A stretch of DNA of 64,000 nucleotides from Patescibacteria group bacterium (GCA_049322675.1 JBMORM010000017.1:3928-67927), one strand, 5' to 3'. Positions 5,908 through 39,461 are shown, counted from the stretch's first letter. Numbers and translations: made by a program. The notes: generated from the sequence alone by a model not told the origin.

Positions 5908-7146
5908 ATGCAACATAAATTTCCCAAAGGATTTTTGTGGGGGGCGGCTTCGGCGGCACATCAGGTGGAGGGTGGGCTGGTGAATGATTGGTCGAGGTGG
6001 GAGTTAAAAAGTGCTAATGACTTGGCTCGGCAGGGGAAAGAGCGTTGGAATGAAGAGAAAAGGAAATTATTTCCTGGGATTACTGAGTCAAAAAATTATA
6101 TTTCCGGCCGGGCTTGCGATCACTATCATCGGTACAAGGAAGATTTTTTATTGGCCAAGCAATTGGGGCACAATGCGACTCGGATTTCGGTGGATTGGTC
6201 ACGGATAGAACCGAGAGAGGGTGTTTTTGTCCAGAAAGAATTGGACCATTATCTGGAGGTGGTTAAGTATTTGGAAGAGATGGGGATTGAGCCGATGGTG
6301 ACGTTGTGGCATTGGCCGTTGCCGTTGTGGTTGGCGGATAAGGGTGGGTGGAAAGATAAAAAAACGGTGGAATATTTTGTCCGTTTTTCAAGAAAGGTGG
6401 TTAATGCATTGAAATCCAAAGTGTCATTTTGGCTGACTTTGAATGAGCCGGAAGTGTATGCGGCCAATTCGTATTTTATCGGAGAGTGGCCGCCACAGGA
6501 AAAAAATATTTTTTCTGCTTGGTCGGTTTTAAACAATTTGATTGCGGCTCATTGCCAGGTTTATGAGGCGATAAAATTTTTAGATAAAAAGGCGCGGGTG
6601 GGGTTGGCCAAACAGATGGCGTATTTTGAAAATGCTGATGGAAAATGGTTGACGCAGTTAGTGCAGGATGCCAAGGATTATTATTGGAACCAATATGTTT
6701 TGAAGAAAACTAAAGACAAGCTGGATTTTTTTGGTTTAAATTACTATTTTCACGAAAAACAGTTTGGGTGGGGAGTGCGAAATGATGATGAGAGCCGTTC
6801 GGATTTGGATTGGGAATTGTTTCCGCAAGGAATTTACAATGTTTTATTGGATTTGAAAAAATATGATTTTCCGGTTTATATAACAGAAAATGGTTTGGCA
6901 GATGCTTTTGATAAAGATCGAACGTGGTTTATTGAAAAGAGTTTGCAGGCAGTAGCTAGAGCGATGCAGCAGGGGGTTGATGTGAGAGGTTATTTGCATT
7001 GGTCGCTTACTGACAATTTTGAGTGGAATCGGGGATTTTGGCCAAGATTTGGTTTGATAGAGATTGATTATAAAACGTTGGAGAGGAAGATCAGGCCGTC
7101 GGCGTGGGAATATAAGATAATTATTAATAATGGGATAGGTGTTTAA
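5908..7146 (+). CDS. Glycoside hydrolase family 1 (beta-glucosidase/6-phospho-beta-glucosidase type)
   Basis: N-terminal FLWGAASAAHQVEGG, TLNEP acid/base and ITENG nucleophile motifs. Confidence 0.85.
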   Translation: MQHKFPKGFLWGAASAAHQVEGGLVNDWSRWELKSANDLARQGKERWNEEKRKLFPGITESKNYISGRACDHYHRYKEDFLLAKQLGHNATRISVDWSRIEPREGVFVQKELDHYLEVVKYLEEMGIEPMVTLWHWPLPLWLADKGGWKDKKTVEYFVRFSRKVVNALKSKVSFWLTLNEPEVYAANSYFIGEWPPQEKNIFSAWSVLNNLIAAHCQVYEAIKFLDKKARVGLAKQMAYFENADGKWLTQLVQDAKDYYWNQYVLKKTKDKLDFFGLNYYFHEKQFGWGVRNDDESRSDLDWELFPQGIYNVLLDLKKYDFPVYITENGLADAFDKDRTWFIEKSLQAVARAMQQGVDVRGYLHWSLTDNFEWNRGFWPRFGLIEIDYKTLERKIRPSAWEYKIIINNGIGV

Positions 7147-7297
7147 TTTCCAATTTTTCCCTCACGGGACCGAACTACTGCTGGCAATTTTCAATTTCCA
7201 AATATGTATTGATGGGTATTATAAATAATTTTATAAAACATTGAAGATTGGTAATTGGAAATTTTTTGAAAATTGAAAATTGAAAATTGGAAATTTT
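7147..7297. repeat. Repeat-family copy: TTCCAATTTT array + core ccctcacgggaccgaactactgctggc (7147-7203), about 50 bp spacer, inverted GGAAATT/GAAAATTG array (7254-7297)
   Basis: Direct reading; the same units recur at 7940, 10876, 11997, 12249, 16884, 17529, 19017 and 34013. Confidence 0.8.
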
Positions 7298-7356
7298 GTT
7301 TCGCGTGGTCTATATTGTGAATAGTGATTATTTTTATCAATAAGAGGGTGAGCGAT

Positions 7357-7872
7357 ATGGCACAAATAAATAAAAAACAAGAAGTGTTGGCGACAAGGCC
7401 GATTGATGAGGAATATGATCCCAATCAGGTGTTTGAATGGGAGTCATACGAATTTGAATATCATGAAAAAGGAAAAAACTGGGTTTGGGGATTGGTGGGA
7501 GTGGTGGTTTTGATGTCTGTATTGTTTGCGGTATTGAAAAATTGGTTGGGGATCGGTATAGTGGTTTTATTGGCGATTGTAGTTTACCAGTATGCTTTCA
7601 AGAAACCGGATAAAATTCATTTTGTTTTAACCAAAGATGGTTTACTGGTTGGGGACAAGATGTATGCCTTCAAAGAGTTGAAACAATTTTGGGTGACACA
7701 TGAAGGAATGTTGTATATTGATACCAAACAATATATTCCGCCAAGATTGTCTTCGATGTTGAGTTCGGTAGATGTGGAAGCGATGGTAAAATTTTTGGAA
7801 TACAATGTTCCAAAAGTTGATCGCAAGACGGCCGATTCGGGGGATCAATTGTCGAAATGGCTGAAGCTTTGA
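7357..7872 (+). CDS. Hypothetical protein with one TM helix
   Basis: ATG at 7357 preceded by AGAGGG SD; the ORF-track N-terminal extension (7324) lies in repeat DNA. Confidence 0.45.
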   Translation: MAQINKKQEVLATRPIDEEYDPNQVFEWESYEFEYHEKGKNWVWGLVGVVVLMSVLFAVLKNWLGIGIVVLLAIVVYQYAFKKPDKIHFVLTKDGLLVGDKMYAFKELKQFWVTHEGMLYIDTKQYIPPRLSSMLSSVDVEAMVKFLEYNVPKVDRKTADSGDQLSKWLKL

Positions 7873-7939
7873 TGTTTCAATACTGTTACTTTATTTTTTG
7901 TTAGGTTAATTTTTTCTATACGATAGATTTATTGGTTGA

Positions 7940-8047
7940 GAAATTTTCAATTTCCAATTTTCAATTTTCAAAAAATTTCCAATGATCAATTTCCAAATAT
8001 CGAATTCTAAATATGTTTGAAAATTGAGAATTGAAAATTGGAAATTT
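7940..8047. repeat. Repeat-family copy: inverted pair of TTCCAATTTTCAA arrays (7940-7998 and 8018-8047)
   Basis: ttttcaatttccaattttcaattttcaaaaaatttccaa ... ttgaaaattgagaattgaaaattggaaattt. Confidence 0.8.
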
Positions 8048-8060
8048 GTGTTTTGTATGT

Positions 8061-8134
8061 GCGCTCGTAGCTCAGCTGGATAGAGCATCAGCTTGCGGAG
8101 CTGGGGGTCGCAGGTTCGAATCCTGCCGAGCGCG
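8061..8134 (+). tRNA. tRNA-Arg (anticodon loop TTGCGGA, read as GCG)
   Basis: Cloverleaf GCGCTCG/CGAGCGC acceptor, GCTCAGCTGGATAGAGC D-arm, GGTTCGAATCC T-arm. Confidence 0.7.
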
Positions 8135-8138
8135 TTTT

Positions 8139-8165
8139 ATGAGGGGAAAATTCTTTTCCCCTCAT
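8139..8165 (+). terminator. Perfect 12-bp hairpin (atgaggggaaaa-ttc-ttttcccctcat) directly after tRNA-Arg
   Basis: Seen in sequence; no strong U-tail, so likely a processing/termination hairpin. Confidence 0.5.
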
Positions 8166-8250
8166 CGCTACGCTGCTCCCCTTTGAATAAAGTATCAAAA
8201 TCTCGAAATGAATTCGAAGATTTTGATGATAAATAGTCGGATCGATTCTT

Positions 8251-8290
8251 CCTCTTCCCAAAAATTTCTACGACAATTTTTGGGAGGGGA
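8251..8290. repeat. Palindromic hairpin element ctcttcccaaaaatt-tctacgac-aatttttgggagg; a second copy at 62203-62250 also flanks a tRNA-Arg
   Basis: About 14-bp arms around an 8-nt centre; near-identical copy at the other tRNA-Arg locus. Confidence 0.7.
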
Positions 8291-8377
8291 TTTGGGGAAG
8301 GAAAAAAAGAGTTTAATAATTTAATTAAGCTCTTTTTTTGTGTTAAAATTGGGGTGTAATGTATAAAAAAGAGAATT

Positions 8378-8890
8378 ATGAAAATATCGAGGGGATTGAA
8401 TAAATTTTTGAATCTGTTGGTGGTGTTATCTATTGTTGGTTTAGTTGTGTATTTATTGGCGACTGCGTTTCGTAATGAGACAGAGTTGTTTATTGCGGAT
8501 TATGGGATGTATATTCTTTTGGTGATGACGGGGGTTTTGCTTGGTTTGCTGGTGGCTTGTTTTGTTTTGAGTATTATTAATTTTGTCAGATTTGCCAAGA
8601 CAAAAAATAAAGATTTTTTGTATAAAGCGTTGCGATATTTGTTTGTTTTTCCGGTGGTTGTGGTAGTTTTGTATTCGGTGGGGGTGTATGTAATTGATAG
8701 TATTTATCTGGATAGAAATATGCGGGGGCCGAGTGGAGGCTTTTCGACGTGTTATATGCCGGTTAGTTTAAATAAATTGGATTCGAATGTTGTTAATCAG
8801 AAAAAAAAATCGAGTTTGGCGAGTTTGACGGAAAAATACAAAAATAATATTCCAGCGGATGTTTTGGAAAAAATTGATCGGGTTAAATAG
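8378..8890 (+). CDS. Small multi-pass membrane protein, paralog 1 of 3 (C-terminal tail ...STCY...KYKNNIPADVLEKIDRVK)
   Basis: 3-4 TM helices; shares KxKxKDFLY..LRYLFVFPVVV and the C-terminal NN(I/L)PADVLEKIDR motif with 9293-9760. Confidence 0.6.
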   Translation: MKISRGLNKFLNLLVVLSIVGLVVYLLATAFRNETELFIADYGMYILLVMTGVLLGLLVACFVLSIINFVRFAKTKNKDFLYKALRYLFVFPVVVVVLYSVGVYVIDSIYLDRNMRGPSGGFSTCYMPVSLNKLDSNVVNQKKKSSLASLTEKYKNNIPADVLEKIDRVK

Positions 8891-8898
8891 GAGGATTT

Positions 8899-9240
8899 GT
8901 GAGGATTTCTAAAATAGTAAGCGTGTTATTGAAAATATTAATTTCTTTGTCATTTTTATTTTTATTTTTATTTTTTTTATTGCTCTATTTCCCGAGTATA
9001 TTTTCTGGTTTTCTTGATTCAAACGAAAATATTATTAAAGCGATGTTTGGGGTTTTAACATTAGTTTTGGGAGTTGGTTTTTTTATATCTTTTTCTTATG
9101 GTTTTGTCCTTTTAGTTCAATATTTCAAGAAAAAAGACAAGAAATATCTATCAGAATCATTGAGATATTTATTGTTATATTCTTTGCTAGTGCTTTTTGC
9201 TGATTTGATTGTTGTAACCATTGGGAGAGTTATTCTTTAA
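8899..9240 (+). CDS. Small multi-pass membrane protein, paralog 2 of 3 (GTG start; ends at tandem TAA TAA just before the conserved tail-coding motif)
   Basis: AGGAGG SD at 8889-8894, GTG at 8899; KKKDKKYLSESLRYLLLYSLLV aligns with paralogs 1 and 3; ADVLEKIDRG is encoded in-frame after two stops. Confidence 0.5.
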   Translation: MRISKIVSVLLKILISLSFLFLFLFFLLLYFPSIFSGFLDSNENIIKAMFGVLTLVLGVGFFISFSYGFVLLVQYFKKKDKKYLSESLRYLLLYSLLVLFADLIVVTIGRVIL

Positions 9241-9292
9241 TAAGCGGATGTTTTGGAAAAAATTGATCGGGGTTAATTTTTTGGGAGGGAGT

Positions 9293-9760
9293 ATGAAAGG
9301 TGCCAAGTGGGTAAATATTGTTCTGGGAATTATTTTGGGGAGTCCGTTGGTTCTATTGGTCGTTTTTAGTATTTGGGGATATATTGCGGACGATTTGGAT
9401 TATATTGATGGTTCGCAAGTAGAGAATCTGTATTTTACTTTGGTTAATTATCTATTGGGGATTGGATTTTTGATTTCTTTGATATATGGATTATATCTTT
9501 TGGGTAGATATATTCATAAAAAGGACAAAGAAATAATGCTATTGTCTTGGCGATATTTATTGCTATTTCCTGTGGTTGTTTTTTTGCTTTATTGTATTGT
9601 TGTTACTGTTCAGATGGTGATTGCTCAACCTGGAGTAACGTCGTGTTATATAATATCAGGCGACGTTAGTTGGAAAAGAGTAAATGAAAAATCAGATTTA
9701 TTAGCAAAATTTAAAAATAATCTTCCGGCGGATGTTTTGGAAAAAATTGATCGGGGTTAA
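9293..9760 (+). CDS. Small multi-pass membrane protein, paralog 3 of 3 (tail ...TSCY...FKNNLPADVLEKIDRG)
   Basis: GGGAGG SD then ATG at 9293; the ORF-track start at 9221 reads the junction repeat in another frame. Confidence 0.6.
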   Translation: MKGAKWVNIVLGIILGSPLVLLVVFSIWGYIADDLDYIDGSQVENLYFTLVNYLLGIGFLISLIYGLYLLGRYIHKKDKEIMLLSWRYLLLFPVVVFLLYCIVVTVQMVIAQPGVTSCYIISGDVSWKRVNEKSDLLAKFKNNLPADVLEKIDRG

Positions 9761-10763
9761 AGCCGATTTTAATCATTTTATTTATGAAGTGACGCCAAGC
9801 TGCAATCATGATTGCAGTTATTGTTATAATGTTTGGAAATATCGGGAATATCCTCAGGGACAATTGTTGGATTTGAGACAGTGGCAGGAAGTTACAGAGA
9901 GGTTGATGGAGCAGACAAATATTGGAACGGTTTCTATTTCCGGGGGAGAGCCGACTATATATCCGGATTTGGTGGTGTTGATCAAATATCTTCGAAGCAA
10001 AAAAATTAATGTCAATTTGTTGACCAACGGTAGCAATATTATTGAAGATTTAGCTAGAGAGTTGGTTGATTTAGATATTTCTATTTTTGAAATACCGTTG
10101 GTGGCGATAGACAAAGAATTGCACAAAAAGTTGAAAGGTCGGGATGATTATGATCAGGTGGTAAAAGGGATTGCTAATCTGACTTCTTTGGGAGCGACAG
10201 TTGTATCTGTCCTGGTGGCGACAAAAGATAATATTGATCAAAGCGCGGAAGTGGCGGAGTTGAGTATGGTTTTGGGTTGTCGGGGAATGATGTTCAATCG
10301 GATCAATCCGGCCAATAAAAAACAGATTGCTTTGATACCGTCAATTGAGCAAATCAAATCGGCGTTGGCAAAATTGGATATTATTTCCAATAAATATAAT
10401 TTTAGTATTAGCTGTTCAGTGCCGATCATGCCATGTTTGATCGATATGAAAAATTATAAAAATTTGTCCTATGGCTATTGCCCGGCCGGTGGCAAACGTT
10501 CATATCCGGTGATTGATTATTTGGGAAATGTGCGGGTGTGCAATCATTCGCCGAAAATATTGGGAAATATATTGGCGAAAGATTTGGATGATATTTTTTC
10601 GAAAAGTGAGTATTTTCAAAATTTTAAAAATTCATTTGCGGACAAGTGTCAGAAGTGTTCACTGGTTAAAGAATGTAAGGGTGGTTGTCGGGCGGCAGCG
10701 GAAGTGTGCTATGGTTGTTTGACAGATTTGGATCCGATGGCGAGGGAGAGGGGGAGTTTTTAA
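9732..10763 (+). CDS. Radical SAM enzyme with C-terminal SPASM-type Cys-rich domain (peptide-modifying maturase-like)
   Basis: CNHDCSYC (CxxxCxxC) near the N-terminus, GGEPT SAM-binding motif, C-terminal CPAGG...C...C..C...C..C SPASM-like cysteines. The start ATG lies inside the conserved junction motif. Confidence 0.8.
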   Translation: MFWKKLIGVKADFNHFIYEVTPSCNHDCSYCYNVWKYREYPQGQLLDLRQWQEVTERLMEQTNIGTVSISGGEPTIYPDLVVLIKYLRSKKINVNLLTNGSNIIEDLARELVDLDISIFEIPLVAIDKELHKKLKGRDDYDQVVKGIANLTSLGATVVSVLVATKDNIDQSAEVAELSMVLGCRGMMFNRINPANKKQIALIPSIEQIKSALAKLDIISNKYNFSISCSVPIMPCLIDMKNYKNLSYGYCPAGGKRSYPVIDYLGNVRVCNHSPKILGNILAKDLDDIFSKSEYFQNFKNSFADKCQKCSLVKECKGGCRAAAEVCYGCLTDLDPMARERGSF

Positions 10764-10875
10764 TTTATAAAAATATAGGTTGAAAAAAGTAGGATGTCGT
10801 CCTGGATATTGAAACGCCCAGTAGGGCTTTCAGTTCCAGGATGACACAATACAATCATTGATCATTCATTGATCA

Positions 10876-10917
10876 TTGGAAATTTTTTGGAAATTGAGAA
10901 TTGGAAATTGGAAATTT
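10876..10917. repeat. Repeat-family copy (GGAAATT orientation) embedded between two tcctgga-stem hairpins and 13-bp direct repeats ttccaggatgaca (10834-10846, 10957-10969)
   Basis: Direct reading. Confidence 0.75.
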
Positions 10918-10970
10918 CATCCTGGATCCTGGATAAGAAGCGTGATTACACTTTCTTTCCAGGATGACAT

Positions 10971-11243
10971 TTGAACAAGAGAATAATTGATATTTTTTTA
11001 ATGAAATATTCTATGGAAGAAATAATTATTTTTGTATTTAGGATAATCTTTGGTTTGGGGGCTGTGACTGCGATTTTTTTTCTTATTTATGGCTTGGTAA
11101 GATATTTTTTGTCACGTGGTGAAAAATATTTTCGGATGTTTGTTTTGTCATTAGTATCGTTGCTTATATTGTTTGCAATATATTCGGTGCTAGTTACTTG
11201 CAATGATTGTAATTGGCCAGAAAGTAATGCAATTATTAAATAA
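10971..11243 (+). CDS. Hypothetical small membrane protein (2 TM)
   Basis: Hydrophobic helices, ends CNDCNWPESNAIIK. Confidence 0.4.
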   Translation: MNKRIIDIFLMKYSMEEIIIFVFRIIFGLGAVTAIFFLIYGLVRYFLSRGEKYFRMFVLSLVSLLILFAIYSVLVTCNDCNWPESNAIIK

Positions 11244-11288
11244 TTAATTGTTCGTAATCCATCTCATTTTTTATGCTAAAATTGGGGT

Positions 11289-12806
11289 ATGACAAATGAG
11301 AGGAGAAAATTTGTTCCTACCTGGTTTTTGACGATGTCACAGATATTTTTTCTGATGCTAATTTTTTGTTGGCCGTTGGGAACCAGATTGCAGTGGTTGG
11401 GTGAATTTTCATATTTGGGAGGTGTGATTTCTGATCTGACGACATATTTTGTTTATGTGACTGATATTTTGTTGGTATTGGTTATTTTGGGTTGGTTGAT
11501 TGATATAGCGATAAAATTTTGGCGATATGAAGATTGGGATGAATGGAATTTGAATCCGTGGCAGGGGATGGTGGTTTTGTTTTTTGGTGGTTTGGCCGGT
11601 TGGGGCTTGTATTCGACTGTGTGGGCGATGATAGATGAAATTGCTTTGTATAAAGGATTACGGTTGGTGGGGATGTGGTGGCTATTTGCATATATTGTGT
11701 TGGTTGTTGGTAAAAATAAAATTTTAATAAGAAATACTTGGTTGGTTGGGTTGGCGACATTGGGTATTCAAGCAGTTTGGGGGATAGCTCAATATATAAA
11801 ACAAAGCGGATTTGGTTTGTGGCAGTTGGGGGAAAGTATTTTGGGAAAAACGGTGGCGGGAGTGGCGAAAGTAGATGTGGATGGAGAGAAGATAATAAGG
11901 GCGTATGGATCTTTGCCGCATGCGAATCTTTTTGGGGTATTTATGTTGTTGGGACTAATTTTGATACTTGTAATATTAGTTTATTCTGGGTGCGGCAAAA
12001 ATTTCCAATTTTCAATTTTTCCCTCACGGGACCGAACTGTTGCTGGCAATTTTCAAAAAATTTCCAATTTCCAATTTTCAAAGAATACTTCAACAATTAT
12101 TTTGGGAGTGCTACTGGGACTATTTTTGGTAGGGATGTTGGTGAGTTTTTCAAGAAGTGTGTGGGTGGCGGGGATGGTGATAATGGTTGGAGCAATTGTT
12201 GAGATGGTTCGTAGGGGCGAGGTTTCCTCGCCAGGGGAAGGGAAGGGGAAAAATTTTCAATTTTCAATTTTCAATTTCCAAAAAATTTCCAATTTTCAAA
12301 CAATATTGATAGGGTTATTTATTTTGTTAATAGCGACAGGATTGAATTGGAAAGTAGTTATGGGGAGGTCTAGTTTGGATGTGGGGAATGATGTGTCTTT
12401 GCAGGTACGGCAGGTTTATGATCAGGGGGCGGATTGGATGATTGAAAAATTTTATTATGGCGGGGTAGGGTTGGGAAATTTTGTATTGGTGTTGCCGTAT
12501 TTTGCCGGTAAGGCCAATCTACAGTGGTGGCAATATCAGCCGGTTCACAATGTTTTCAAATTGGTTTGGTCGGAACTGGGCGTTTTTGGTTATATTTTGT
12601 TAATATTACTTATGGTTAGTATTGCAGCGATGATATTGTTTGATGATCAAAAAAAGTATCCCAAATATTTTTGGTTAAGTGTTATTTTGTCGATGATATT
12701 TTTGATGTTTTTTGATCATTATTTCTGGGATGTGTGGCAGGGGATGATGGGGTGGGCGGTGTTTCTGGGGGTTATGGTGGTTGGGGGAAGTAGTAAAAAA
12801 ACTTAG
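11289..12806 (+). CDS. O-antigen ligase/polymerase-family (Wzy_C) membrane protein carrying two in-frame repeat insertions
   Basis: SFSRSVWVAG and QPVHNVFKLVWSELGVFG motifs of the O-antigen ligase family; repeat copies at 11997-12083 and 12249-12300 translate in-frame. Confidence 0.6.
   Translation: MTNERRKFVPTWFLTMSQIFFLMLIFCWPLGTRLQWLGEFSYLGGVISDLTTYFVYVTDILLVLVILGWLIDIAIKFWRYEDWDEWNLNPWQGMVVLFFGGLAGWGLYSTVWAMIDEIALYKGLRLVGMWWLFAYIVLVVGKNKILIRNTWLVGLATLGIQAVWGIAQYIKQSGFGLWQLGESILGKTVAGVAKVDVDGEKIIRAYGSLPHANLFGVFMLLGLILILVILVYSGCGKNFQFSIFPSRDRTVAGNFQKISNFQFSKNTSTIILGVLLGLFLVGMLVSFSRSVWVAGMVIMVGAIVEMVRRGEVSSPGEGKGKNFQFSIFNFQKISNFQTILIGLFILLIATGLNWKVVMGRSSLDVGNDVSLQVRQVYDQGADWMIEKFYYGGVGLGNFVLVLPYFAGKANLQWWQYQPVHNVFKLVWSELGVFGYILLILLMVSIAAMILFDDQKKYPKYFWLSVILSMIFLMFFDHYFWDVWQGMMGWAVFLGVMVVGGSSKKT
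11997..12083. repeat. Repeat-family copy with core (ttccaattttcaattttt-ccctcacgggaccgaactgttgctggc-aattttcaa...) inside the ligase CDS
   Basis: Direct reading; no stop in the host frame. Confidence 0.8.
12249..12300. repeat. Repeat-family copy (TTTTCAATTTTCAATTTTCAATTTCCAAAAAATTTCCAATTTTCAA) inside the ligase CDS
   Basis: Direct reading. Confidence 0.8.
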
Positions 12807-12906
12807 CAAACGTAGCAAACATAACAAACACTTTGAAACGCTTTGAAACTCTTATAAACGCTTAAAAACTAAAAGATTGTTTTGTATTAGAATTAATTAG
12901 ATATTT

Positions 12907-13386
12907 ATGGATTTTTATCAGATTGTATCTTTGTTACTCATGTTTTTGTTTGTCTATATTTTGGCATTGAAAGCTTATTTACTGATAAATTCGTGGAAGA
13001 ATAATAATTGTAAGCAATATGGGATTATTGGTTTTGTTATTTTATTTGAAGTTTTGATAGCTAATTTTGTTATTTTTGATCCAAAAAATTTTATTCTTGA
13101 TTCTTCGAGTGTATATTTCTCGTATTGTCAGTTTAGAAATTATATTATAGCTTTCTATTTGTTGATTGGTGTGGATGTGCTGATGAATATTGGATGTTTT
13201 TTTATTGGGTTGTATTTTTTAGCAAAAAAGAAGCTGAAATTGTTATTTTTGATGGTTCCATTTTTGAGTATATTATTTTTTGTTGTAATATTTTTCTTTT
13301 TTCCAAGTATTTATGTTTTGTTGAAAAACATTGGTGTTTTAATAATTGATAATTTTTATCAATGCAAAGTAAAATTTGTAATATAA
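12907..13386 (+). CDS. Hypothetical membrane protein (AT-rich, low complexity)
   Basis: Hydrophobic helices; could be partly spurious. Confidence 0.3.
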   Translation: MDFYQIVSLLLMFLFVYILALKAYLLINSWKNNNCKQYGIIGFVILFEVLIANFVIFDPKNFILDSSSVYFSYCQFRNYIIAFYLLIGVDVLMNIGCFFIGLYFLAKKKLKLLFLMVPFLSILFFVVIFFFFPSIYVLLKNIGVLIIDNFYQCKVKFVI

Positions 13387-13395
13387 CATTGTAAG

Positions 13396-14841
13396 ATGAA
13401 TTCTCTAACATACAAAGTAGCGTTAAATACAGTAGTTCAAACCATTGGTAAAGTGGTGGTGGTGGGGACTAGTATTGTGACGATTGGACTTTTGACCCGG
13501 TATTTGGGCCAGAAGGGGTTTGGTGAGTACACGACGGTGATGACTTATTTGGGATTTTTTGGGATTGTGGTGGATTTGGGGATGTATTTGATTGTGGTGC
13601 GGGAGATCGTGAAAGAGAAAGATCGAGCGGAAGAAATATTGGGCAATGCTTTGGGGTTGAGAATTGTTTTGGGAATTTTGGTTTTGGGTTTGTCGCCTCT
13701 TGTAGCTTGGTGGTTTTTTCCGTATTCGCATTTGGTTGATTGGGCGATTGGAATCGGAGCTTTGTCTTTTTTCTTTATCAGTTTGAATCAAATATTGGTA
13801 TCGGTGTTTCAGATTGATTTGCAAATGTGGAAATTGGTTTTGGGAGAGGTTTTCGGTAGATTGGCGATATTGGGTGGAACTTATTATTTTATTTTGCAAA
13901 AAGGAGATTTGCATAGTTTCTTGTGGGCCAATGTGGCGGGAAATGTTGTCTTATTTGTAATTACTTTGTTGTTCGCTCGCAAGTATTGTCGGATCAGACC
14001 CAGGTTTGAATGGAAAGCCTGGAAGCCAATGTTGGCAGAGACTTTGCCTTTGGCAGTTGTGGTCATGCTCAATCGGATTTATTTTAATATCGATACGATT
14101 TTTTTGTCGATTTTTAAGTCGCAGGAGGAAGTGGGTATTTATGGTTTGCCCTACAAGATTTTGGATATTTTGATCAGTTTTCCGTCAATTTTTGCTGGTC
14201 TGGTATTTCCGGCTTTTGCCAAGCATGCTTTGGAGGATAAATCGGAATTGAAGAGAGTATATCAAAAGGCTTTTGATTTTTTGTTGGTAGTGGCTTTGCC
14301 GATGTTTATGGGTTTATTTATGCTGGCAAAACCAATAGTGCATATTTTGGGTGGTGATGATTTTGGTGATTCGATAAATTTATTGCGTATTTTGTCGATG
14401 GCGGTAGTTTTTGTTTTCTTTAGTACTTTATCGAATAATTTGGTTATCGCTGTTCAAAAGCAAAAACAATTGATGACTATTTCTTTGATTTCGGTGGTCG
14501 TCAACGTTGTTTTAAATTTGTGGTTGATTCCCAAATATTCATATTTTGCCGCAGCGTGGATTACTGTTTTAACTGAATTTATAGTTACTGTTTTGTCCGG
14601 CTGGTTCGTGTGGCGATTTGTATCGATATTGCCAAATTTGAAGATAGGAGTGAAAAGTTTGATGGCTACTATGGCGATGGGTTTGTTTTTGTGGTTTTTC
14701 AATGAATTAAATTTTATAATTTTGGTAATGGCTGGAGGTATGGTGTATTTTGTGGTGTTGTATTTGATGGGTGGTTTGCCTAGGGAGGCGATGGAGAAGC
14801 TTTTGGGAAAAAAGATAGTGGAGAAGTTGGGGATTAGGTAA
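13396..14841 (+). CDS. wzx: Polysaccharide biosynthesis protein / Wzx-type oligosaccharide flippase (MOP superfamily)
   Basis: About 12-14 TM helices; the N-terminal ...TIGKVVVVGTSIVTIGLLTRYLGQKGFGEYTTVMTYLGFFGIVVDLG pattern is typical of flippases. Confidence 0.7.
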   Translation: MNSLTYKVALNTVVQTIGKVVVVGTSIVTIGLLTRYLGQKGFGEYTTVMTYLGFFGIVVDLGMYLIVVREIVKEKDRAEEILGNALGLRIVLGILVLGLSPLVAWWFFPYSHLVDWAIGIGALSFFFISLNQILVSVFQIDLQMWKLVLGEVFGRLAILGGTYYFILQKGDLHSFLWANVAGNVVLFVITLLFARKYCRIRPRFEWKAWKPMLAETLPLAVVVMLNRIYFNIDTIFLSIFKSQEEVGIYGLPYKILDILISFPSIFAGLVFPAFAKHALEDKSELKRVYQKAFDFLLVVALPMFMGLFMLAKPIVHILGGDDFGDSINLLRILSMAVVFVFFSTLSNNLVIAVQKQKQLMTISLISVVVNVVLNLWLIPKYSYFAAAWITVLTEFIVTVLSGWFVWRFVSILPNLKIGVKSLMATMAMGLFLWFFNELNFIILVMAGGMVYFVVLYLMGGLPREAMEKLLGKKIVEKLGIR

Positions 14842-14842
14842 T

Positions 14843-14877
14843 AGGTTCTAGGTTCTAGGTTCTAGGTTCTAGGTTTT
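14843..14877. repeat. Heptanucleotide tandem repeat (AGGTTCT)x4 plus a degenerate fifth unit, in the wzx-GT2 intergenic/promoter region
   Basis: ataggttctaggttctaggttctaggttctaggtttt read directly. Confidence 0.9.
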
Positions 14878-14898
14878 AGATATTAGGTGATAGGTAAT

Positions 14899-15924
14899 AT
14901 GGGGACAATGAATAATATTGATGTTTCGGTTATTATTGTCAGCTACAATTGTAAGAACTACTTAATAGATTGTTTACGGACAGTTAGTGACGATATTGAT
15001 GGGAGTGGTTTAAAAGTTGAAGTGATTGTGATTGACAATAGTCCCAATGACGAAACGGTGGAAATGTTGAAAACTGAGAAATATGGATGGTTGAAGTGGA
15101 TAAAAGCGGAAAATCGGGGTTGGGGAGCGGCCAATAATGTTGGTTTGAAAATCGCTCAGGGTAAATATTTGTTTCTTTTAAATCCGGATACTGTTGTGGA
15201 AAAGGAAACAACACGGTTTTTGTTTGATTATTTAGAAAAAAATAATTGGGTGGGCTTGGTTGGTCCGAGGATGATTTTTGGTGATGGCAATTTGCAAATT
15301 TCAGCTTATGACAATTATCCGGGGATTATTTCGGCTTTTCTGGAAAACACTTTGTTGGACCGGTTATTTTATTGGTTGTTTCCCGAGACTATCTATCCGG
15401 GAAAATTATTTTCTAAAAAGTTGCATGATAGAAAAAGGGAGGTGGCTCATTTGCTAGGTGCAGTGATGTTTATGCGGCGGGAGATATATGAGCAGACTAA
15501 AGGTTTTGATGAACAATTTTTTATGTTTCGGGAGGAGACTGACTGGCAGTTTCGAATGAAGCGGGCGGGGTGGAAGATTGTTTATAATCCGGAGATAACA
15601 GTGACACATTTTGAAGGGGGGAGTACGGGTGAAGCGAGGCGGAAAAAAAATTGGCAACGCAAGCTGGATATGTATTTGCCGTCAGTTTATAAATACGAAA
15701 AAAAATGGGGTGGGTGGCTAAAAGCGATTGTGGTTGGTTTGATATATTTTTTTGGTTCGATTTGGACTTTATTAATTTTGGGGATCATCTGGTTGTTAAA
15801 CAATGCTTTTGGTTGGGTGGTGAATAATTGGCGGAAAAAAATTAATCGTTCGATTGCGGATATTGCGATTTATCATTGGGCGATTATTATTTGGCATGTG
15901 AGATATTTGGATAGATGGTTTTGA
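14899..15924 (+). CDS. Glycosyltransferase family 2
   Basis: VSVIIVSYNCKNYLIDCLRTV...VIVIDNSPND (GT2 Rossmann N-terminus), DxD-like region, C-terminal TM helices; AGGTGA SD before ATG 14899. Confidence 0.8.
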   Translation: MGTMNNIDVSVIIVSYNCKNYLIDCLRTVSDDIDGSGLKVEVIVIDNSPNDETVEMLKTEKYGWLKWIKAENRGWGAANNVGLKIAQGKYLFLLNPDTVVEKETTRFLFDYLEKNNWVGLVGPRMIFGDGNLQISAYDNYPGIISAFLENTLLDRLFYWLFPETIYPGKLFSKKLHDRKREVAHLLGAVMFMRREIYEQTKGFDEQFFMFREETDWQFRMKRAGWKIVYNPEITVTHFEGGSTGEARRKKNWQRKLDMYLPSVYKYEKKWGGWLKAIVVGLIYFFGSIWTLLILGIIWLLNNAFGWVVNNWRKKINRSIADIAIYHWAIIIWHVRYLDRWF

Positions 15925-15979
15925 AATAAAAATTAACAATGAAGAGTGAATAATAATTAATTGGAATAGGAACAAGAAA

Positions 15980-16369
15980 ATGGAATTTTTGGGGCAGGCG
16001 GCGGCGGTAATTATGCAGGACGGAAAATTATTACTAATAAAAAGGGGAAAAGAGTGTCATGAAGCTGGTAAATGGTGCACAATGAATGAAACGATTGAAG
16101 AGGAAGAAATGCCAGAGGAGGCGGCGGTGCGTGGTGCTAAAGAGGAATTGGGTGTGGATTTTGAAGTTGGTAAAAAATTATTTGAACATTTTTGCAATGG
16201 ACATACTACACATGTTTTTTCCGGAAATTTTTCTGGTGAGATCCGACCTGACAAGAGAGAGGTGGAGGAGTGGGGTTGGTTTGATTATGAAGAGACAAAA
16301 GGATTGGTCTTTGCTTATGATTACAATAAAGTCGTTGATAAATTGTTTGAGTTGGGATTAATACAATAG
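15980..16369 (+). CDS. NUDIX hydrolase
   Basis: NUDIX box-like ETIEEEEMPEEAAVRGAKEELGV. Confidence 0.65.
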   Translation: MEFLGQAAAVIMQDGKLLLIKRGKECHEAGKWCTMNETIEEEEMPEEAAVRGAKEELGVDFEVGKKLFEHFCNGHTTHVFSGNFSGEIRPDKREVEEWGWFDYEETKGLVFAYDYNKVVDKLFELGLIQ

Positions 16370-16375
16370 TTTTTT

Positions 16376-17524
16376 ATGAAAATTGCGATTGATTATCGGG
16401 AGGCGATACGGGAGAATAAAGCCGGGAAGGGGGTGGTGGTTTGGCAGTTGGTGGACAGATTGAAAAAGATCATTTTGGATGATGAGGTGGATTTGCTGGT
16501 GGATGAGGATTTTGTTTTTGAGGATTTTCCGGCCAATTGGCATAAAAAAATAATTGGTGGGAAAGGATTGAAATGGCATTGGAACGTTTGGCGGAAATTG
16601 AAAAACTATGATCGGTATTTGTCTTTGACCAGTTTTTTGGTGCCGGCGTTTGATTGGAATAAAAAGTGTATTATCTTTGTTCACGATTTGGTGGTGTTTT
16701 ATGATGAATTGGCGAAGAAACACAATCGGAAAGCGTATTGGATGGAACGATTGACATTGGGTGCAGCTTTGAAAAAGGCGCGGAAAATAATTGTGCCGTC
16801 AGAGACGACGGGGGAGGATTTAAAAAAGTTTTTTAAAGTTGACGAAAATAATTTTTCTTTGGTTTATGAGGGAGTTAACATTCAAAATTTCCAATTTCCA
16901 ATTTTTCCCTCACGGGACCGAACTGCTGCTGGCAATTTTCAAACATATTTTGATGAAAATATTGGGGAGATAAAAAAGAAATTTGGGATTACTGGTGATT
17001 ATTTGTTTTTTGTGGGGACTTTGGAGCCGAGGAAAAATTTGTCGAATTTAATTTTGGCATATGATAAATTGGTTAAAAAATACGGATGGGAGGGGCAGTT
17101 GGTTTTGGCTGGAAAAAAGGGTTGGTATTTTGATGAACTTTTTACTTTAGTAAAGAAACTGAATTTGGAAAAGAAAGTTATTTTCACTGGATTTACGACG
17201 GATGAAGAAAAATTTATTTTAATAAAAGACGCGAAGTGTTTTTGTATGGTAAGTCGATATGAAGGTTTTGGGTTGCCGATACTCGAGGCGATGTCGGTGG
17301 GGACGCCGGTGGTGACGAGTAATAATTCCAGTTTGTCGGAAGTGGCGGGGGAGGCGGTGGTTTTGGTGGATCCAGATAATGTTGAAGAAATCGCCAGCGG
17401 AATTCAAAAAGTATTGTCTGATAAAGTTCTGGCGGATAGTTTGGTTAAAAAGGGAATGGAGAGGATAAAATTGTTTGACTGGGAAAAAGCGGCGGGGGAA
17501 GTGTATAATTTAGTTAGGGATTAG
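16376..17524 (+). CDS. Glycosyltransferase family 4 (GT-B) carrying an in-frame repeat insertion
   Basis: FFVGTLEPRKN...LVLAGKKGW...MVSRYEGFGLPILEAMSVGTPVVTSNNSSLSEVAG are GT4 motifs; repeat at 16884-16943 is in-frame. Confidence 0.85.
   Translation: MKIAIDYREAIRENKAGKGVVVWQLVDRLKKIILDDEVDLLVDEDFVFEDFPANWHKKIIGGKGLKWHWNVWRKLKNYDRYLSLTSFLVPAFDWNKKCIIFVHDLVVFYDELAKKHNRKAYWMERLTLGAALKKARKIIVPSETTGEDLKKFFKVDENNFSLVYEGVNIQNFQFPIFPSRDRTAAGNFQTYFDENIGEIKKKFGITGDYLFFVGTLEPRKNLSNLILAYDKLVKKYGWEGQLVLAGKKGWYFDELFTLVKKLNLEKKVIFTGFTTDEEKFILIKDAKCFCMVSRYEGFGLPILEAMSVGTPVVTSNNSSLSEVAGEAVVLVDPDNVEEIASGIQKVLSDKVLADSLVKKGMERIKLFDWEKAAGEVYNLVRD
16884..16943. repeat. Repeat-family copy with core (ccctcacgggaccgaactgctgctggc) inside the GT4 CDS
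   Basis: Direct reading. Confidence 0.8.
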
Positions 17525-17528
17525 AGGG

Positions 17529-17643
17529 AAATTTCCAATTTCCAATTTTCAAAAAAGGCTTAATTTCCAATTTTCAAACAAAATTCATTGGAAATTGGTC
17601 ATTGAAAATTTATTGGAAATTGAGACTTGGAAATTGGAAATTA
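17529..17643. repeat. Repeat-family copy: inverted pair of arrays (17529-17577 TTCCAATTT orientation; 17588-17643 GGAAATTGG orientation)
   Basis: Direct reading. Confidence 0.8.
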
Positions 17644-17659
17644 TTTTCTATAAATTATT

Positions 17660-19033
17660 TTGAAATTATCTTTCATAAATAAATATTCTTTGTTTTATTG
17701 TTTGGCTGGATTTGGCTTGTTGCTTTTGTATGCTTTGTTGTCGGTAATCGATGTAAAATTGGCGATGGGAGTGATGGGGGCGGGGATATTATTTTTTCTG
17801 TTTTGGTTGGATCTTAGATGGGGAATTGTGGTTTTATTGTTATCGGTTTTGTCGGGTCAGATTGTTCGTTTTAGTTTTGGTTCGGCGGCAATATTGCCTT
17901 CGGATGGAGTAATGGTGGTATTGTTATTGGTCTGGATTTTGAAAATACTGGTAGAAAAGAGGAAATTGGTATTTGATGTTACAATTGTTTCCTTGCTGGT
18001 ATTTTGGGTGGTTAGTCTGGTAATAAATTTGGCGATTGTGGATCGTTATGAACTCCAGCAACAGAAGACGATTTGGCTATATTGGTTAAGATTGATTATT
18101 TATTCTACTTGTTTGCCGATAACTATGAATATTGTTAATTGGTATGGCGAACAAAAGAAATTTTTTAGATGGTTTATTTACCTGGGATTGGCGTTTTTGG
18201 TTTTGGGTTTTGTGCAGTTGGTGATTTTGCCTGATATAAGTTTTTTAACGGATTATGGCTGGGATCCTCATCAGGGGAGATTGCTTTCAACTTTTTTGGA
18301 TCCCAATTTTGCCGGAGCGTTTTTGATAATATGTTTTGCGGTGAGTTTTAGTATGTATTTCGGGCAAGTAAAATGGAATAAACAGAAATTATGGTGGATA
18401 GTATTGAGTGGATTATTTTTGGGTGGAATTGTTTTGACTTTATCTCGTAGCGCTTTGGTTTCTTTGGTTTTTGTATTTGGTTGGTTAGCGTGGTGGTGGG
18501 ATAAAAGATTGTTGTTGTTTGGTTTATTTACTTCAATTACTTTGTTGATCAATGATCAGAGGTTGATGCAACGGGTGGTGGGGATAGTGGAATTTGATGA
18601 AACAGCAATGTTGAGATTGCAATCCTGGAATGATAGTTGGCAGATTGTGCAAGATAATTTTTGGACGGGGATTGGGTACAACGCTTTGTCGTTTGAACAG
18701 TTTCGTCGGGGCATAATTACTGATATCAATGTTCATTCGGCGGGCGGATCGGATAGTAGCTATTTGACAATTTGGACAACTCTGGGGTTGATAGGACTGT
18801 TTTTTTGGCTTTTGATTTTTGTTTTTTTTGTGTCTCGATCGATAACGATGTATTGGAAAGAAAAAAAAGATCAGAGTCAGAAATTTTTGATTTTGGGAGT
18901 GGTGTTGGCGGTTTTGGGAGTAATGATTCACGCTCAGTTTACCAATAGTATGTTATATGTGCATATTATGATTCCGGTTTGGTTTTTGATGGGAGTAGTG
19001 CTGGGAGGAAAAGATAAAATTTCCAATTTCTAA
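17660..19033 (+). CDS. O-antigen ligase/polymerase-family membrane protein (second paralog); start uncertain
   Basis: LTLSRSALVSL and HSAGGSDSSYLTIWTTLGLIGL (H...YL...LG..G) motifs; the last codons (KISNF*) are encoded by the palindromic repeat. Confidence 0.55.
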   Translation: MKLSFINKYSLFYCLAGFGLLLLYALLSVIDVKLAMGVMGAGILFFLFWLDLRWGIVVLLLSVLSGQIVRFSFGSAAILPSDGVMVVLLLVWILKILVEKRKLVFDVTIVSLLVFWVVSLVINLAIVDRYELQQQKTIWLYWLRLIIYSTCLPITMNIVNWYGEQKKFFRWFIYLGLAFLVLGFVQLVILPDISFLTDYGWDPHQGRLLSTFLDPNFAGAFLIICFAVSFSMYFGQVKWNKQKLWWIVLSGLFLGGIVLTLSRSALVSLVFVFGWLAWWWDKRLLLFGLFTSITLLINDQRLMQRVVGIVEFDETAMLRLQSWNDSWQIVQDNFWTGIGYNALSFEQFRRGIITDINVHSAGGSDSSYLTIWTTLGLIGLFFWLLIFVFFVSRSITMYWKEKKDQSQKFLILGVVLAVLGVMIHAQFTNSMLYVHIMIPVWFLMGVVLGGKDKISNF

Positions 19034-19088
19034 TTTTTAATTTTTAAACATATTTTGTTTAGAAATTAAAAATTAGAAATTAAAAATT
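19017..19088. repeat. About 70-bp imperfect palindrome variant of the repeat family (tttccaatttctaatttttaatttttaaac-atatt-ttgtttagaaattaaaaattagaaattaaaaattt), ending 7 nt before the next gene start
   Basis: Direct reading; close homolog at 34013-34082. Confidence 0.8.
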
Positions 19089-19094
19089 TGGTTT

Positions 19095-20381
19095 ATGATT
19101 ATTTGGTTGTTGGTTGCTATTTTTTTAGTGATTACTTACCTGTTGGCGAAGGAAGATTTGTTGTGGGCGATTGGTTGGATGATATTTATGGCGCCATCAT
19201 ATATTGTGAGATTGAATTTTTTTGGGATTCCAACCAATGCTTTGGAGTTGGGTGTTTATGTTGTGTTTTTGGTGTGGATAATCAGAATAATTAGGGGTAA
19301 GAGTATTTTTCGCTGGAGAAAATTTTATTGGTTGCCCTTGATTTTGCTTTTTGTAGCTTTGATATCGATAATTTTGGTTGCTGATGACCGAAAAATGTCG
19401 TTGGGTCTTTGGAAAGGATGGATTTTTGATCCGATTTTGATTTTTTTGATTGTGAGTTGCGAATTTAGGAAGTTGGCGCAGATTTCATGGATAAAAAGTG
19501 GATTTTTGTTTTTGGTAGGGATGTTGGGAACAATCGGAATATGGCAATGGTTAACCGGAAATATTGATACGGTGGATGGTCGTTTGGCGGTGTTTTTCAC
19601 TTCGGCCAATTATTTGGCAATGCTGTTGGCTTCGGGTTTGAGTTTTTTGTTGGCTGGTTTTTTGATGGAAAAAAAGAGAAAATGGTGGGAAATATTTTTT
19701 TTGGTTTTAGGACTTTGGGCCTTGATTGCTTCGGGCTCATTTATAAGTGTATTTGCATTAGTCTTGACGGTGGGTTGGATGGTTTTGGCGGGATGGCAAA
19801 AAAAAGGAAATGTAATATTATGGGTGATATTTGGTTGTGTTTTAGTGGCGGCGATATTTTTTGGGACTCAAATCGGCTCAGAGAGAATGTCAAATATGCT
19901 GGATTTAAGCAAAAGATCGTCGGTGACAGTTCGGATGCAGGTTTGGCAGACGGCGTGGGCAATGGTGGCGGACAATCCTGTTGTTGGTATTGGTTTGGGA
20001 AATTTTGAGAAAAAATATATTGAGTATTTACCGTCAGTAGTTGCCAATCCTTTGGAATGGCGGATGCTGCATGCGCATAATTTTTGGCTACAAACTTGGC
20101 TAACTATGTCTATCTTTGGATTATTGGTGTTTTTGATGATAGTTATTTATAGTTGGTGGTTGGGAATGAGAATGATAAAAAGGTTAGAAAAACAATTTTG
20201 GGTAGTCTATGGGTTAATGGGATATTTATTGTCATTTGTTTTAGTCGGCTTGTTGGATACTCCTTATTATAAAAATGATTTTTCGTTGATTTTTTGGATA
20301 ATGATTGGTTTGTTGATAGCGTTGACAAAAATTTTACAGAAAGAAAAAAGATATTTGAAAAAAATGGGGAAAAAGATATGA
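19095..20381 (+). CDS. O-antigen ligase-family membrane protein (third paralog)
   Basis: LDLSKRSSVTVRMQVW...GIGLGNFE...HAHNFWLQTWLTMSIFGLL, the classic Wzy_C signature. Confidence 0.7.
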   Translation: MIIWLLVAIFLVITYLLAKEDLLWAIGWMIFMAPSYIVRLNFFGIPTNALELGVYVVFLVWIIRIIRGKSIFRWRKFYWLPLILLFVALISIILVADDRKMSLGLWKGWIFDPILIFLIVSCEFRKLAQISWIKSGFLFLVGMLGTIGIWQWLTGNIDTVDGRLAVFFTSANYLAMLLASGLSFLLAGFLMEKKRKWWEIFFLVLGLWALIASGSFISVFALVLTVGWMVLAGWQKKGNVILWVIFGCVLVAAIFFGTQIGSERMSNMLDLSKRSSVTVRMQVWQTAWAMVADNPVVGIGLGNFEKKYIEYLPSVVANPLEWRMLHAHNFWLQTWLTMSIFGLLVFLMIVIYSWWLGMRMIKRLEKQFWVVYGLMGYLLSFVLVGLLDTPYYKNDFSLIFWIMIGLLIALTKILQKEKRYLKKMGKKI

Positions 20382-33964: not shown

Positions 33965-34014
33965 TTTTCCCGGCTATGATTCTGCATATATGAAAAGAGT
34001 TGTAGCCGGGAAAA
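33965..34014 (+). terminator. Hairpin with perfect 12-bp stem (ttttcccggcta ... tagccgggaaaa) after hsp20
   Basis: Direct reading; followed by a T-rich stretch. Confidence 0.6.
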
Positions 34015-34082
34015 TTTCTAATTCTTAATTTTTAATTTTTAAACTATTTTTGTTTAGAAATTAAAAATTAAGAATTAAAAAT
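34013..34082. repeat. About 70-bp palindromic repeat-family variant (aaatttctaattcttaatttttaatttttaaac-tattttt-gtttagaaattaaaaattaagaattaaaaatt), 48 nt upstream of dnaK
   Basis: About 90% identical to 19017-19088. Confidence 0.8.
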
Positions 34083-34130
34083 TAATAATTAATTCTGTTA
34101 TTTATCTGTTTTAAATATTTAAGAGGTTTT

Positions 34131-39398: not shown

Positions 39399-39436
39399 AA
39401 CTCTTATTAATTTCAGTTTGTAAGAGTTTGTAAGGG
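39381..39436. terminator. Bidirectional terminator hairpin (cccttagaaactctt ... aagagtttgtaaggg) between convergent genes
   Basis: 15-bp stem with one mismatch; overlaps the stop of the 38040-39398 gene. Confidence 0.6.
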
Positions 39437-39461
39437 TTTTAAGTTTAGAAGTGTTTGAAAT

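Follow-up and report, generated by a model that had tools for sequence, protein, structure and literature searches.

A family of heptamer-built palindromic repeats with a nested 27-nt core in and around a surface-glycan locus of a Patescibacteria genome

The DNA considered here is a stretch of 64,000 nucleotides from a Patescibacteria group bacterium (GCA_049322675.1, JBMORM010000017.1:3928-67927), referred to as the window, and its subject is a family of repeats that are composed of tandem heptamers, often paired as inverted arms and sometimes interrupted by a 27-nt core. The window displayed 37 % G+C, and nearly all genes up to 52 kb were located on the + strand. The genes concerned begin with GH1, followed by a small open reading frame (ORF), tRNA-Arg, a radical-SAM gene, a second small ORF and a Wzy-like gene (11289-12806), and continue with a flippase, GT2, NUDIX, GT4 (16376-17524), two Wzy_C genes, a second GT4 and an H+-PPase. 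A preliminary description of the same DNA had placed repeats after GH1, ahead of tRNA-Arg and of the small ORF at 10971, inside ORF 11289-12806 and the GT4 gene, in the GT4-Wzy_C spacer and in the spacer between the two Wzy_C genes. All these contexts were found to be correct, with two copies inside ORF 11289-12806, and so were the inverted pairs reported at 7147/7254, 7940/8018 and 17529/17588.

The 13-mer TTCCAATTTTCAA, from which the arrays were said to be built, was encountered eight times without mismatch (0.06 expected; none of 100 shuffles reached eight), always within 7280-17577. With up to two mismatches, 44 matches were counted against 15.8 expected, 35 of them inside 7.1-19.1 kb. 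The repeats are thus real, but reading of the sequence and TRF showed that they are made of a heptamer (AATTTYC, or GRAAATT on the complementary strand), of which the 13-mer covers slightly less than two units. A period scan of the window, with expectations from a first-order Markov model, uncovered 18 arrays of period 7 (0.77 expected) and essentially none, zero or one, at periods 8 to 12.

Tandem pairs of AATTYYY were unevenly distributed, 16 out of 19 lying inside 19 % of the window (binomial P ~1e-9). As this region holds 1353 of the ~7200 intergenic bases, the local clustering is real and is not explained by extra spacer DNA. The concentration at 7-19 kb that had been announced holds within the window, and one further hairpin of the family is located outside this range (34013-34092). 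Loci of relatives, designated here by L numbers, were gathered by one genome scan for the core (two loci), one metagenome scan (four loci) and a survey of loci with GT4 homologs. In the glycan locus of L060, four AATTTYC sites were found, three of them at positions that are occupied in the window too, so that much of the clustering is inherited rather than the product of a recent burst. Other heptamers displayed the same behaviour in the clade, namely AATTAAC, TAGGTTC, AAAACTC, AATGACA and AAAATTC. Exact (AATTTYC)3 arrays were also met in 47 viral contigs from IMG/VR (L013-L059), many of them with 50-68 % G+C, which indicates that the heptamer recurs far beyond this clade. These viral arrays were single, with an inverted partner in one contig only, and since they reside in mostly G+C-rich DNA they are not considered the same element. 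The 27-nt core did not occur in IMG/VR.

All sites could be aligned as copies of one composite palindromic element of ~110 nt. Its left arm, AAA(AATTTYC)2-3, is followed by a signature, CAAAAAATTTCCAAT, that is common to six sites, then by one or two further units, a short loop that is frequently AAACATATTTTG, and an inverted arm, (GRAAATT)3-5. Intergenic arms were 23-48 nt long with a complementarity of 75-94 %, and copies inside genes retained one arm only. Arms varied in both number and sequence of their units and are not fixed terminal repeats.

The core, TCCCTCACGGGACCGAACTGCTGCTGG, formed a clean insertion or deletion between CAATTTT and CAATTT of the left arm. It was present in three window copies (7159-7185, 12021-12047 and 16907-16933, each with at most one mismatch, in agreement with the three reported before) and absent from four, and its excision restores a perfect heptamer register. 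It is a separate, nested indel and not the centre of the element. All ten core copies found anywhere, three in the window and seven in the whole of the public contigs scanned, were located between CAATTTT and CAATTTY, in identical register and orientation relative to the array. Folding of the core as RNA predicted only a 4-bp stem (UCCC-UCAC-GGGA) without significance (z -0.2); a single diverged copy displayed CCCC...GGGG in this stem.

Complete copies were found in five spacers, all given on the + strand (7145-7296, 7941-8047, 17528-17642, 19017-19089 and 34013-34092). Four of them folded with z scores from -3.7 to -9.1, the copy after GH1 (folded as 7150-7299) being weaker with -2.4. The left arm of the latter (7145-7202) lies directly 3' of the GH1 stop, whose TAA aligns with the CAA of other copies, and reads AATTTCC AATTTTT, core copy 1 (CCCTCACGGGACCGAACTACTGCTGGC, 7159-7185, 27 nt), AATTTTC AATTTCC AAA. 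An orthologous copy exists in L001, with a shorter inverted GRAAATT arm than the one at 7241-7296. A complete, core-less hairpin occupies 7941-8047 (arms 7941-7997 and 8016-8047; z -3.7), between ORF 7324-7872 and tRNA-Arg at 8060, and another one lies at 17528-17642 between GT4 and the first Wzy_C gene (arms 17528-17577 and 17588-17642; z -4.6). The hairpin between the two Wzy_C genes, 19017-19089, belongs to an AATTTYT subfamily (arms 19017-19050 and 19056-19089; z -9.1); its first arm contains the stop of Wzy_C gene 1 (19033), and Wzy_C gene 2 starts after its second arm (19095). Its sister hairpin at 34013-34092, between hsp20 and dnaK (z -7.7), displays the rare unit AATTCTT at mirrored positions in both arms. 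A reversed left-half copy without partner arm was found on the - strand at 10855-10919, nested between two copies of another palindromic repeat.

That other repeat, unrelated to the heptamer family, is a near-perfect palindrome of 52 nt, TGTCGTCCTGGATATTGAAACGCCCAGTAGGGCTTTCAGTTCCAGGATGACA, found in the window at 10795-10846 and 10915-10969, the second, partial copy flanking the heptamer array. The z scores for folding of its two strands as RNA were -7.5 and -8.8, and no match was found in Rfam. Further copies were seen in L003 (~6060-6115), L006 (~5330-5480) and L010 (6797); those of L003 and L006 are located downstream of GT4, where the window holds its AATTTYC hairpin. The adjacent leader of the small ORF 10971-11243 (10920-11010, ATCCTGGATCCTGGATAAGAAGCGTGATTACACTTTCTTTCCAGGATGACATTTGAAC...) was almost identical in L010/L060, although the neighbouring proteins are only ~75 % identical, and might serve as a conserved regulatory or RNA element. 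Another hairpin, which contains G+C (TTTTCCCGGCTA...TAGCCGGGAAAA), is located at 33965-34012, directly after the hsp20 stop and immediately 5' of the heptamer hairpin upstream of dnaK, in the cluster hrcA-grpE-hsp20-dnaK-dnaJ. A hairpin of 10-nt repeats, AAACTCTTAT / AGTTTGTAAG, separates two convergent ORFs at 39378-39439 (z -5.5), part of it matching L006 at 583-667.

Three window copies were located inside ORFs, and the reading frames run straight through them. These copies consist only of the left, stop-free, AATTTYC-oriented half of the element, on the coding strand, and they reside in loops absent from homologs; in the reverse orientation, as read from the sequence, three GAAAATT units are enough to bring TGA into every frame. 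Two belong to the Wzy-like membrane protein: a copy with core (12021-12047) at 11999-12082, in a loop called site 1 here (peptide NFQFSIFPSRDRTVAGNFQKISNFQFS), and a core-less one at 12250-12300, site 2, where L003 and L010/L060 have the core. The third, 16884-16943 with core at 16907-16933, encodes residues 171-186 in the interdomain linker of GT4. All three are in frame on the + strand. GT4 homologs at ~50 % identity lacked the segment, and the Wzy-like orthologs of L061 and L062 lacked both of theirs. In the AlphaFold model of GT4, with a mean predicted local distance difference test score (pLDDT) of 87.9, residues 171-186 (NFQFPIFPSRDRTAAG) formed the only stretch below pLDDT 50; they correspond exactly to the element and are placed by the model in the linker between two Rossmann domains. 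The tracts in genes were short, never had more than three identical units, were imperfect and did not fold significantly (z -0.4 and +0.6). Copies of this kind thus represent insertions into tolerant loops that are predicted to be disordered. They also call for caution in annotation, as Pfam can miss a domain that is split by such inserts. The Wzy-like ORF is an example: its match to Wzy_C is weak (E = 0.005, both with and without the two inserts), and in a precomputed table the ortholog of L062, which is free of inserts, is listed with an unmarked Wzy_C match.

Several other arrays were noted. The only reverse-oriented coding copy seen was a two-unit array, GGAAATTGAGAATT on the coding strand, at 2486-2499 in the CYTH-domain ORF 2331-2855. 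Arrays of AATTAAC/AATGAAC were found in the C-terminal coding part of two ORFs. One array (25579-25611), in a VanW-like ORF, is conserved in L060 (19109); the other (39580-39620), in the minus-strand ORF 39462-40508, is followed by TTTCCCCTCACAC, resembling the start of the 27-nt core. A (TAGGTTC)n array at 14835-14881 spans the junction between the stop of the flippase and the start of GT2; L003 lacks it, its form in L006 is divergent, and the same unit type was found in the in-frame GT4 insert of L003/L006 and inside RsmE of L009.

Comparison with relatives uncovered gain, loss and replacement of arrays, whole hairpins and core at orthologous sites, the flanking genes being intact. At site 1 of the Wzy-like gene, the window has arrays and core, L010/L060 a diverged core (CCCCTCACGGGGATCAGCTGCTGCCGAC) and L003 neither, and at site 2 the arrays are without core in the window and combined with the canonical core in L003 and L010. 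The GT4 linker carried five different array/core modules in five lineages, all in frame, and none in more distant homologs: AATTTCC arrays with core in the window, (AATTTTC)4 without core in L007, GGTTCTA arrays, a G/A-rich core and AAAACTC arrays in L003 and L006, and AATGACA arrays, a short G-rich core and AAAACTC arrays in L008. At the 3' end of GH1, L060 has a one-unit mini-hairpin without core, L001 the core with a three-unit arm, and the window the core with a longer loop and a five-unit arm. Before tRNA-Arg, the AATTTYC hairpin of the window is represented in L001 by an unrelated hairpin of TATCAAA type. The GT4/Wzy_C junction holds an AATTTCC hairpin in the window, an AATTTCT hairpin in L060 and a different palindrome in L003/L006; the junction of the two Wzy_C genes holds an AATTTYT hairpin in the window, a TCAAGGA hairpin in L061 and none in L060. 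Three independent samples were 100 % identical over 4.5 kb, arrays included. An assembly artefact was rejected, the same structures being present in independent NCBI, JGI, ENA and Logan assemblies.

Near-identical copies were also found at non-orthologous sites, within and between genomes, and the core was 27/27 identical between such sites in different genomes. With its flanks, it was encountered in frame in RsmE (L009), in frame in LeuRS (L012, in another reading frame), after an ABC-2 transporter gene (L011) and between khpA and a D-Ala-D-Ala carboxypeptidase gene (L002). It is therefore not specific to glycan genes, and as its frame differs in LeuRS and the copies of L002 and L011 are intergenic, the element acts as DNA and not as peptide. 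The copy at site 1 of the window and that of L002 have a common G-to-T variant in the core and a common right flank, and since their sites are unrelated, transfer of copies between sites is indicated. At site 2, the cores of L003 and L010 were 25/27 identical, against 65 % identity at third codon positions of the host gene (P ~0.001 by a binomial estimate). Besides the in-frame core, the LeuRS-like ORF of L012 (1448-3913) displayed a Ser_hydrolase / alpha-beta-hydrolase domain at residues 460-631.

The density of repeats in this region had been proposed to favour recombination-driven rearrangement or variation of surface structures. This was not supported. The order Wzy-like, flippase, GT2, variable slot, GT4, Wzy_C, Wzy_C, GT4, PPase was identical in five relatives with 47-84 % GT4 identity, from which it follows that the repeats have produced no rearrangement of the glycan locus; in addition, the orthologs were in frame in all six assemblies, and the core resides as well in RsmE, in LeuRS and in unrelated spacers. 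The only difference in gene content was the slot between GT2 and GT4, which directly follows an AATTAAC-type array located at the 3' end of GT2. It is a weak hint of rearrangement, being a single association with another array type. The slot was occupied by NUDIX in the window (15925-16375) and L003 (4441-4900), by an aminoglycoside-phosphotransferase-like gene in L006 (3239-4129) and by Amidohydro_2 in L060 (9210-9995), and was empty in L061 and L062.

No consistent direct duplication was visible in the flanks read at the six complete copies, and neither transposase nor reverse transcriptase was detected by Pfam among the ~58 ORFs of the window, its sole recombinase being an Xer-like tyrosine recombinase (47014-47919). 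BLAST of the element returned no match in phage or plasmid collections, and the Rfam search suggested earlier returned only tRNAs, at the gathering threshold as well as over 6900-19300 with E values up to 1. Derivation of the core from a tRNA was rejected for lack of T-arm pairing, and a role as DNA-uptake sequence because copies are too few and clustered.

From these results, the repeats appear on balance to be a lineage-specific family of small non-coding elements built of heptanucleotide tandem arrays. They are probably a mini-element family based on heptameric simple sequence repeats (SSRs) with a nested small dispersed repeat (SDR), close to the STRR (short tandemly repeated repetitive) sequences and SDRs of cyanobacteria and, in their in-frame insertion, to Rickettsia palindromic elements (RPEs). 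Under this reading, slipped-strand mispairing of 7-nt units would make the arms expand, contract and vary in unit sequence, and the composite element and the core would reach new arrays chiefly through gene conversion or short-patch recombination on flanking heptamer homology, which would require no element-encoded enzyme. The core might be lost again by slippage between its flanking direct heptamers. Spread of this kind, as proposed, would account for the fixed register and orientation of the core, its restriction to AATTTYC arrays, the near-identical copies and the local clustering. Among copies that land in genes, selection would retain those that keep the frame, contain no stop codon and lie in disordered loops. 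The intergenic hairpins, if active at all, would probably serve as 3'-end or stability hairpins of RNA between co-directional genes.

Several points weigh against this proposal. The steps of gene conversion and slippage are deduced from end states in six or seven assemblies, and the rarity of the core (three copies here, seven in the public contigs scanned) makes a small sample for its dynamics. A trans-acting transposase or reverse transcriptase may be located elsewhere, as the analysis covers ~68 kb of genome and short pieces of relatives. Gene conversion alone leaves unexplained both the first array at a new site and the unrelated heptamers found at the same sites in other lineages. Hairpins replacing one another at the same spacers could mean that a hairpin is functionally required there, and the bias of the core for one frame (four of five independent coding sites) is not significant.

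A bolder form of the proposal, to which we grant some chance while holding it improbable, is that this clade of Patescibacteria harbours an active, enzyme-less mini-element system by which heptamer-array modules and the 27-nt core are copied, by homology or through an RNA intermediate, into new sites, among them essential genes such as those of LeuRS, RsmE, glycosyltransferases and Wzy-like proteins. If so, new disordered protein loops and intergenic hairpins would arise continually in genomes thought to be streamlined; the system would be the first of its kind outside cyanobacteria and, with 27 nt, its core would rank among the smallest mobile units known.

The repeats had been called MITE-like, after the miniature inverted-repeat transposable elements (MITEs), and as a structural label this is fair: they include composite palindromes, near-identical copies at non-orthologous sites and differences in presence and absence between relatives. 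A classical MITE, that is a non-autonomous transposon whose arms are terminal inverted repeats served by a transposase encoded elsewhere, would also be in keeping with the small, A+T-rich, dispersed complete copies, with the signature common to six sites and with the sister copies 19017-19089 and 34013-34092, which lie 15 kb apart. We nevertheless consider this origin unlikely. The arms vary in unit number and sequence and are not fixed terminal repeats, copies in genes are devoid of a second arm, the core moves independently of the arms, and target-site duplications, a transposase among the ORFs of the 64 kb and matches in phage, plasmid and Rfam collections were all missing from what was searched.

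A comparably low probability is attached to the intergenic hairpins being selected cis-acting RNA or DNA structures (terminators, stabilisers of mRNA 3' ends or translational-coupling hairpins), of which the copies in genes would be an accidental spill-over, the heptamer arrays being no more than the means by which such hairpins grow longer. The hairpins begin at stop codons or a few bases from them, the complementarity of their arms is maintained (91-94 %, including the mirrored rare unit at 34013), and orthologous spacers of relatives hold other hairpins (TATCAAA in L001, the CCAGGATGACA palindrome in L003/L006, TCAAGGA in L061); for the 7-bp STRR hairpins between cyanobacterial genes, stabilisation or termination of transcripts has indeed been proposed (PMC2670836). 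However, no hairpin exists in L060 where the two Wzy_C genes adjoin, the stems consist almost purely of A/U and are not G+C-rich, and a scan with the classical consensus of intrinsic terminators gave seven sites against 9.5 expected, none of them at the elements. Such a function would moreover leave the in-gene copies and the nested core without a role. Promoter activity was considered as well: the GRAAATT arm as a sigma-70 -35 box (TTGRAA) was rejected as a general explanation, its scan showing no excess (48 against 47.2). The arrangement TTGGAA-N18-TATATT upstream of ORF 7324 was kept in L001, and the spacing was not kept at the GT4/Wzy_C junction of L060.

Phase variation, by which surface-glycan genes would be turned on or off through frameshifts upon gain or loss of one 7-nt unit in the Wzy-like and GT4 genes, is suggested by a unit length not divisible by three and by arrays that lie inside surface-polysaccharide genes and differ in length between relatives. 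It appears very unlikely, as the coding tracts are imperfect and never exceed three identical units, orthologs are in frame in all six assemblies, the three samples do not differ in their arrays over 4.5 kb, and the same element resides in RsmE and LeuRS, essential housekeeping genes. Least probable of all, to the point of being nearly negligible, are selected peptide modules, in which NFQ-rich loops would be functional parts of the proteins, for although the core is read in one frame (PSRDRTAAG) at four of five independent coding sites, this bias is not significant (P ~0.14), LeuRS uses another frame, three copies are intergenic, the segment is predicted to be disordered, unrelated sequences occupy the same GT4 site in other lineages, and a whole-library HMMER search with a 31-aa window peptide returned no protein with the motif at E up to 0.001.

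The GC skew of the window was strongly and uniformly positive over the 64 kb (+0.18 to +0.49 in 2-kb windows) and remained so where genes move to the minus strand after ~52 kb.

Among known systems, the closest to a heptamer-based mini-element family are the STRR sequences of Anabaena, Nostoc and Calothrix and the heptameric SSRs of Xanthomonas and Nostoc, which likewise consist of tandem 7-nt units in many dispersed arrays, form inverted pairs and hairpins between co-transcribed genes, and vary in length and sequence at the same sites among close relatives, for which slippage has been proposed (PMC2670836; PMC4692102). Slippage was also invoked for the excess of heptamers in bacteria (PMC4692102). 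STRRs are reported to lie within a functional gene as well, that of RNase P RNA (Vioque 1997). In contrast to STRR sequences, the host here is a metagenome-assembled genome (MAG) of Patescibacteria and not a cyanobacterium, and the unit AATTTYC is different and much more A+T-rich than the units of the known arrays (reportedly CCCCAGT, TTGGTCA and CAACAGT, or GGGAATC). The arrays moreover form one composite element with a common signature and loop, and they are found repeatedly in frame in protein genes.

For the core, the best parallel is offered by SDR1-8 of Nostoc punctiforme, which, in the work of Elhai et al. from 2008, are said to be 21-27 nt long, to be embedded in tandem heptameric repeats or mini-transposons, and to display precise insertion positions, near-identical copies and presence or absence between relatives; SDR4-6 reportedly possess a conserved secondary structure with compensatory changes. 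Neither SDRs nor the core are known to have an enzyme. Like SDRs, the core measures 27 nt, keeps one register in heptamer arrays and is polymorphic between relatives at sites 1 and 2 of the Wzy-like gene. In the core, only a 4-bp hairpin without significance and one CCCC/GGGG variant were seen; its copy number is very low, and the host is a bacterium of the candidate phyla radiation (CPR) with a reduced genome.

RPEs are short repeats that stand in frame in protein genes and are tolerated in surface loops without disturbing the fold; they are palindromes of 100-150 nt and are inserted whole. In-frame insertion at tolerated loops is a feature in common with the Wzy-like and GT4 copies and with RsmE and LeuRS of relatives, but here only the stop-free half of the element, with or without core, enters genes, it is built of heptamers, and both sequence and taxon are unrelated. 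With MITEs, repetitive extragenic palindromic (REP) sequences and bacterial interspersed mosaic elements (BIMEs), the family has in common small size, a palindromic and non-coding sequence, and dispersal to the ends of genes; it differs by displaying neither target-site duplications, nor fixed terminal repeats, nor a G+C-rich stem, nor a transposase or REP-associated tyrosine transposase (RAYT) in the window.

No description of elements of this kind in Patescibacteria was found in the literature searched. To our knowledge, heptameric repeats with nested elements of 21-27 nt have so far been described essentially in heterocystous cyanobacteria and are poorly understood. The architecture encountered here agrees with that described for STRR and SDR in the features compared, apart from taxon and sequence; with regard to core structure, a predicted 4-bp stem and one variant were seen. 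The same architecture in a CPR bacterium suggests a general mechanism that does not depend on phylum, and not a peculiarity of cyanobacteria. Such elements provide reduced genomes with a route to new disordered protein segments. Clear before and after states in related genomes, repeated in-frame insertion into proteins, and the small and simple genomes of this clade make it a good place to work the mechanism out.

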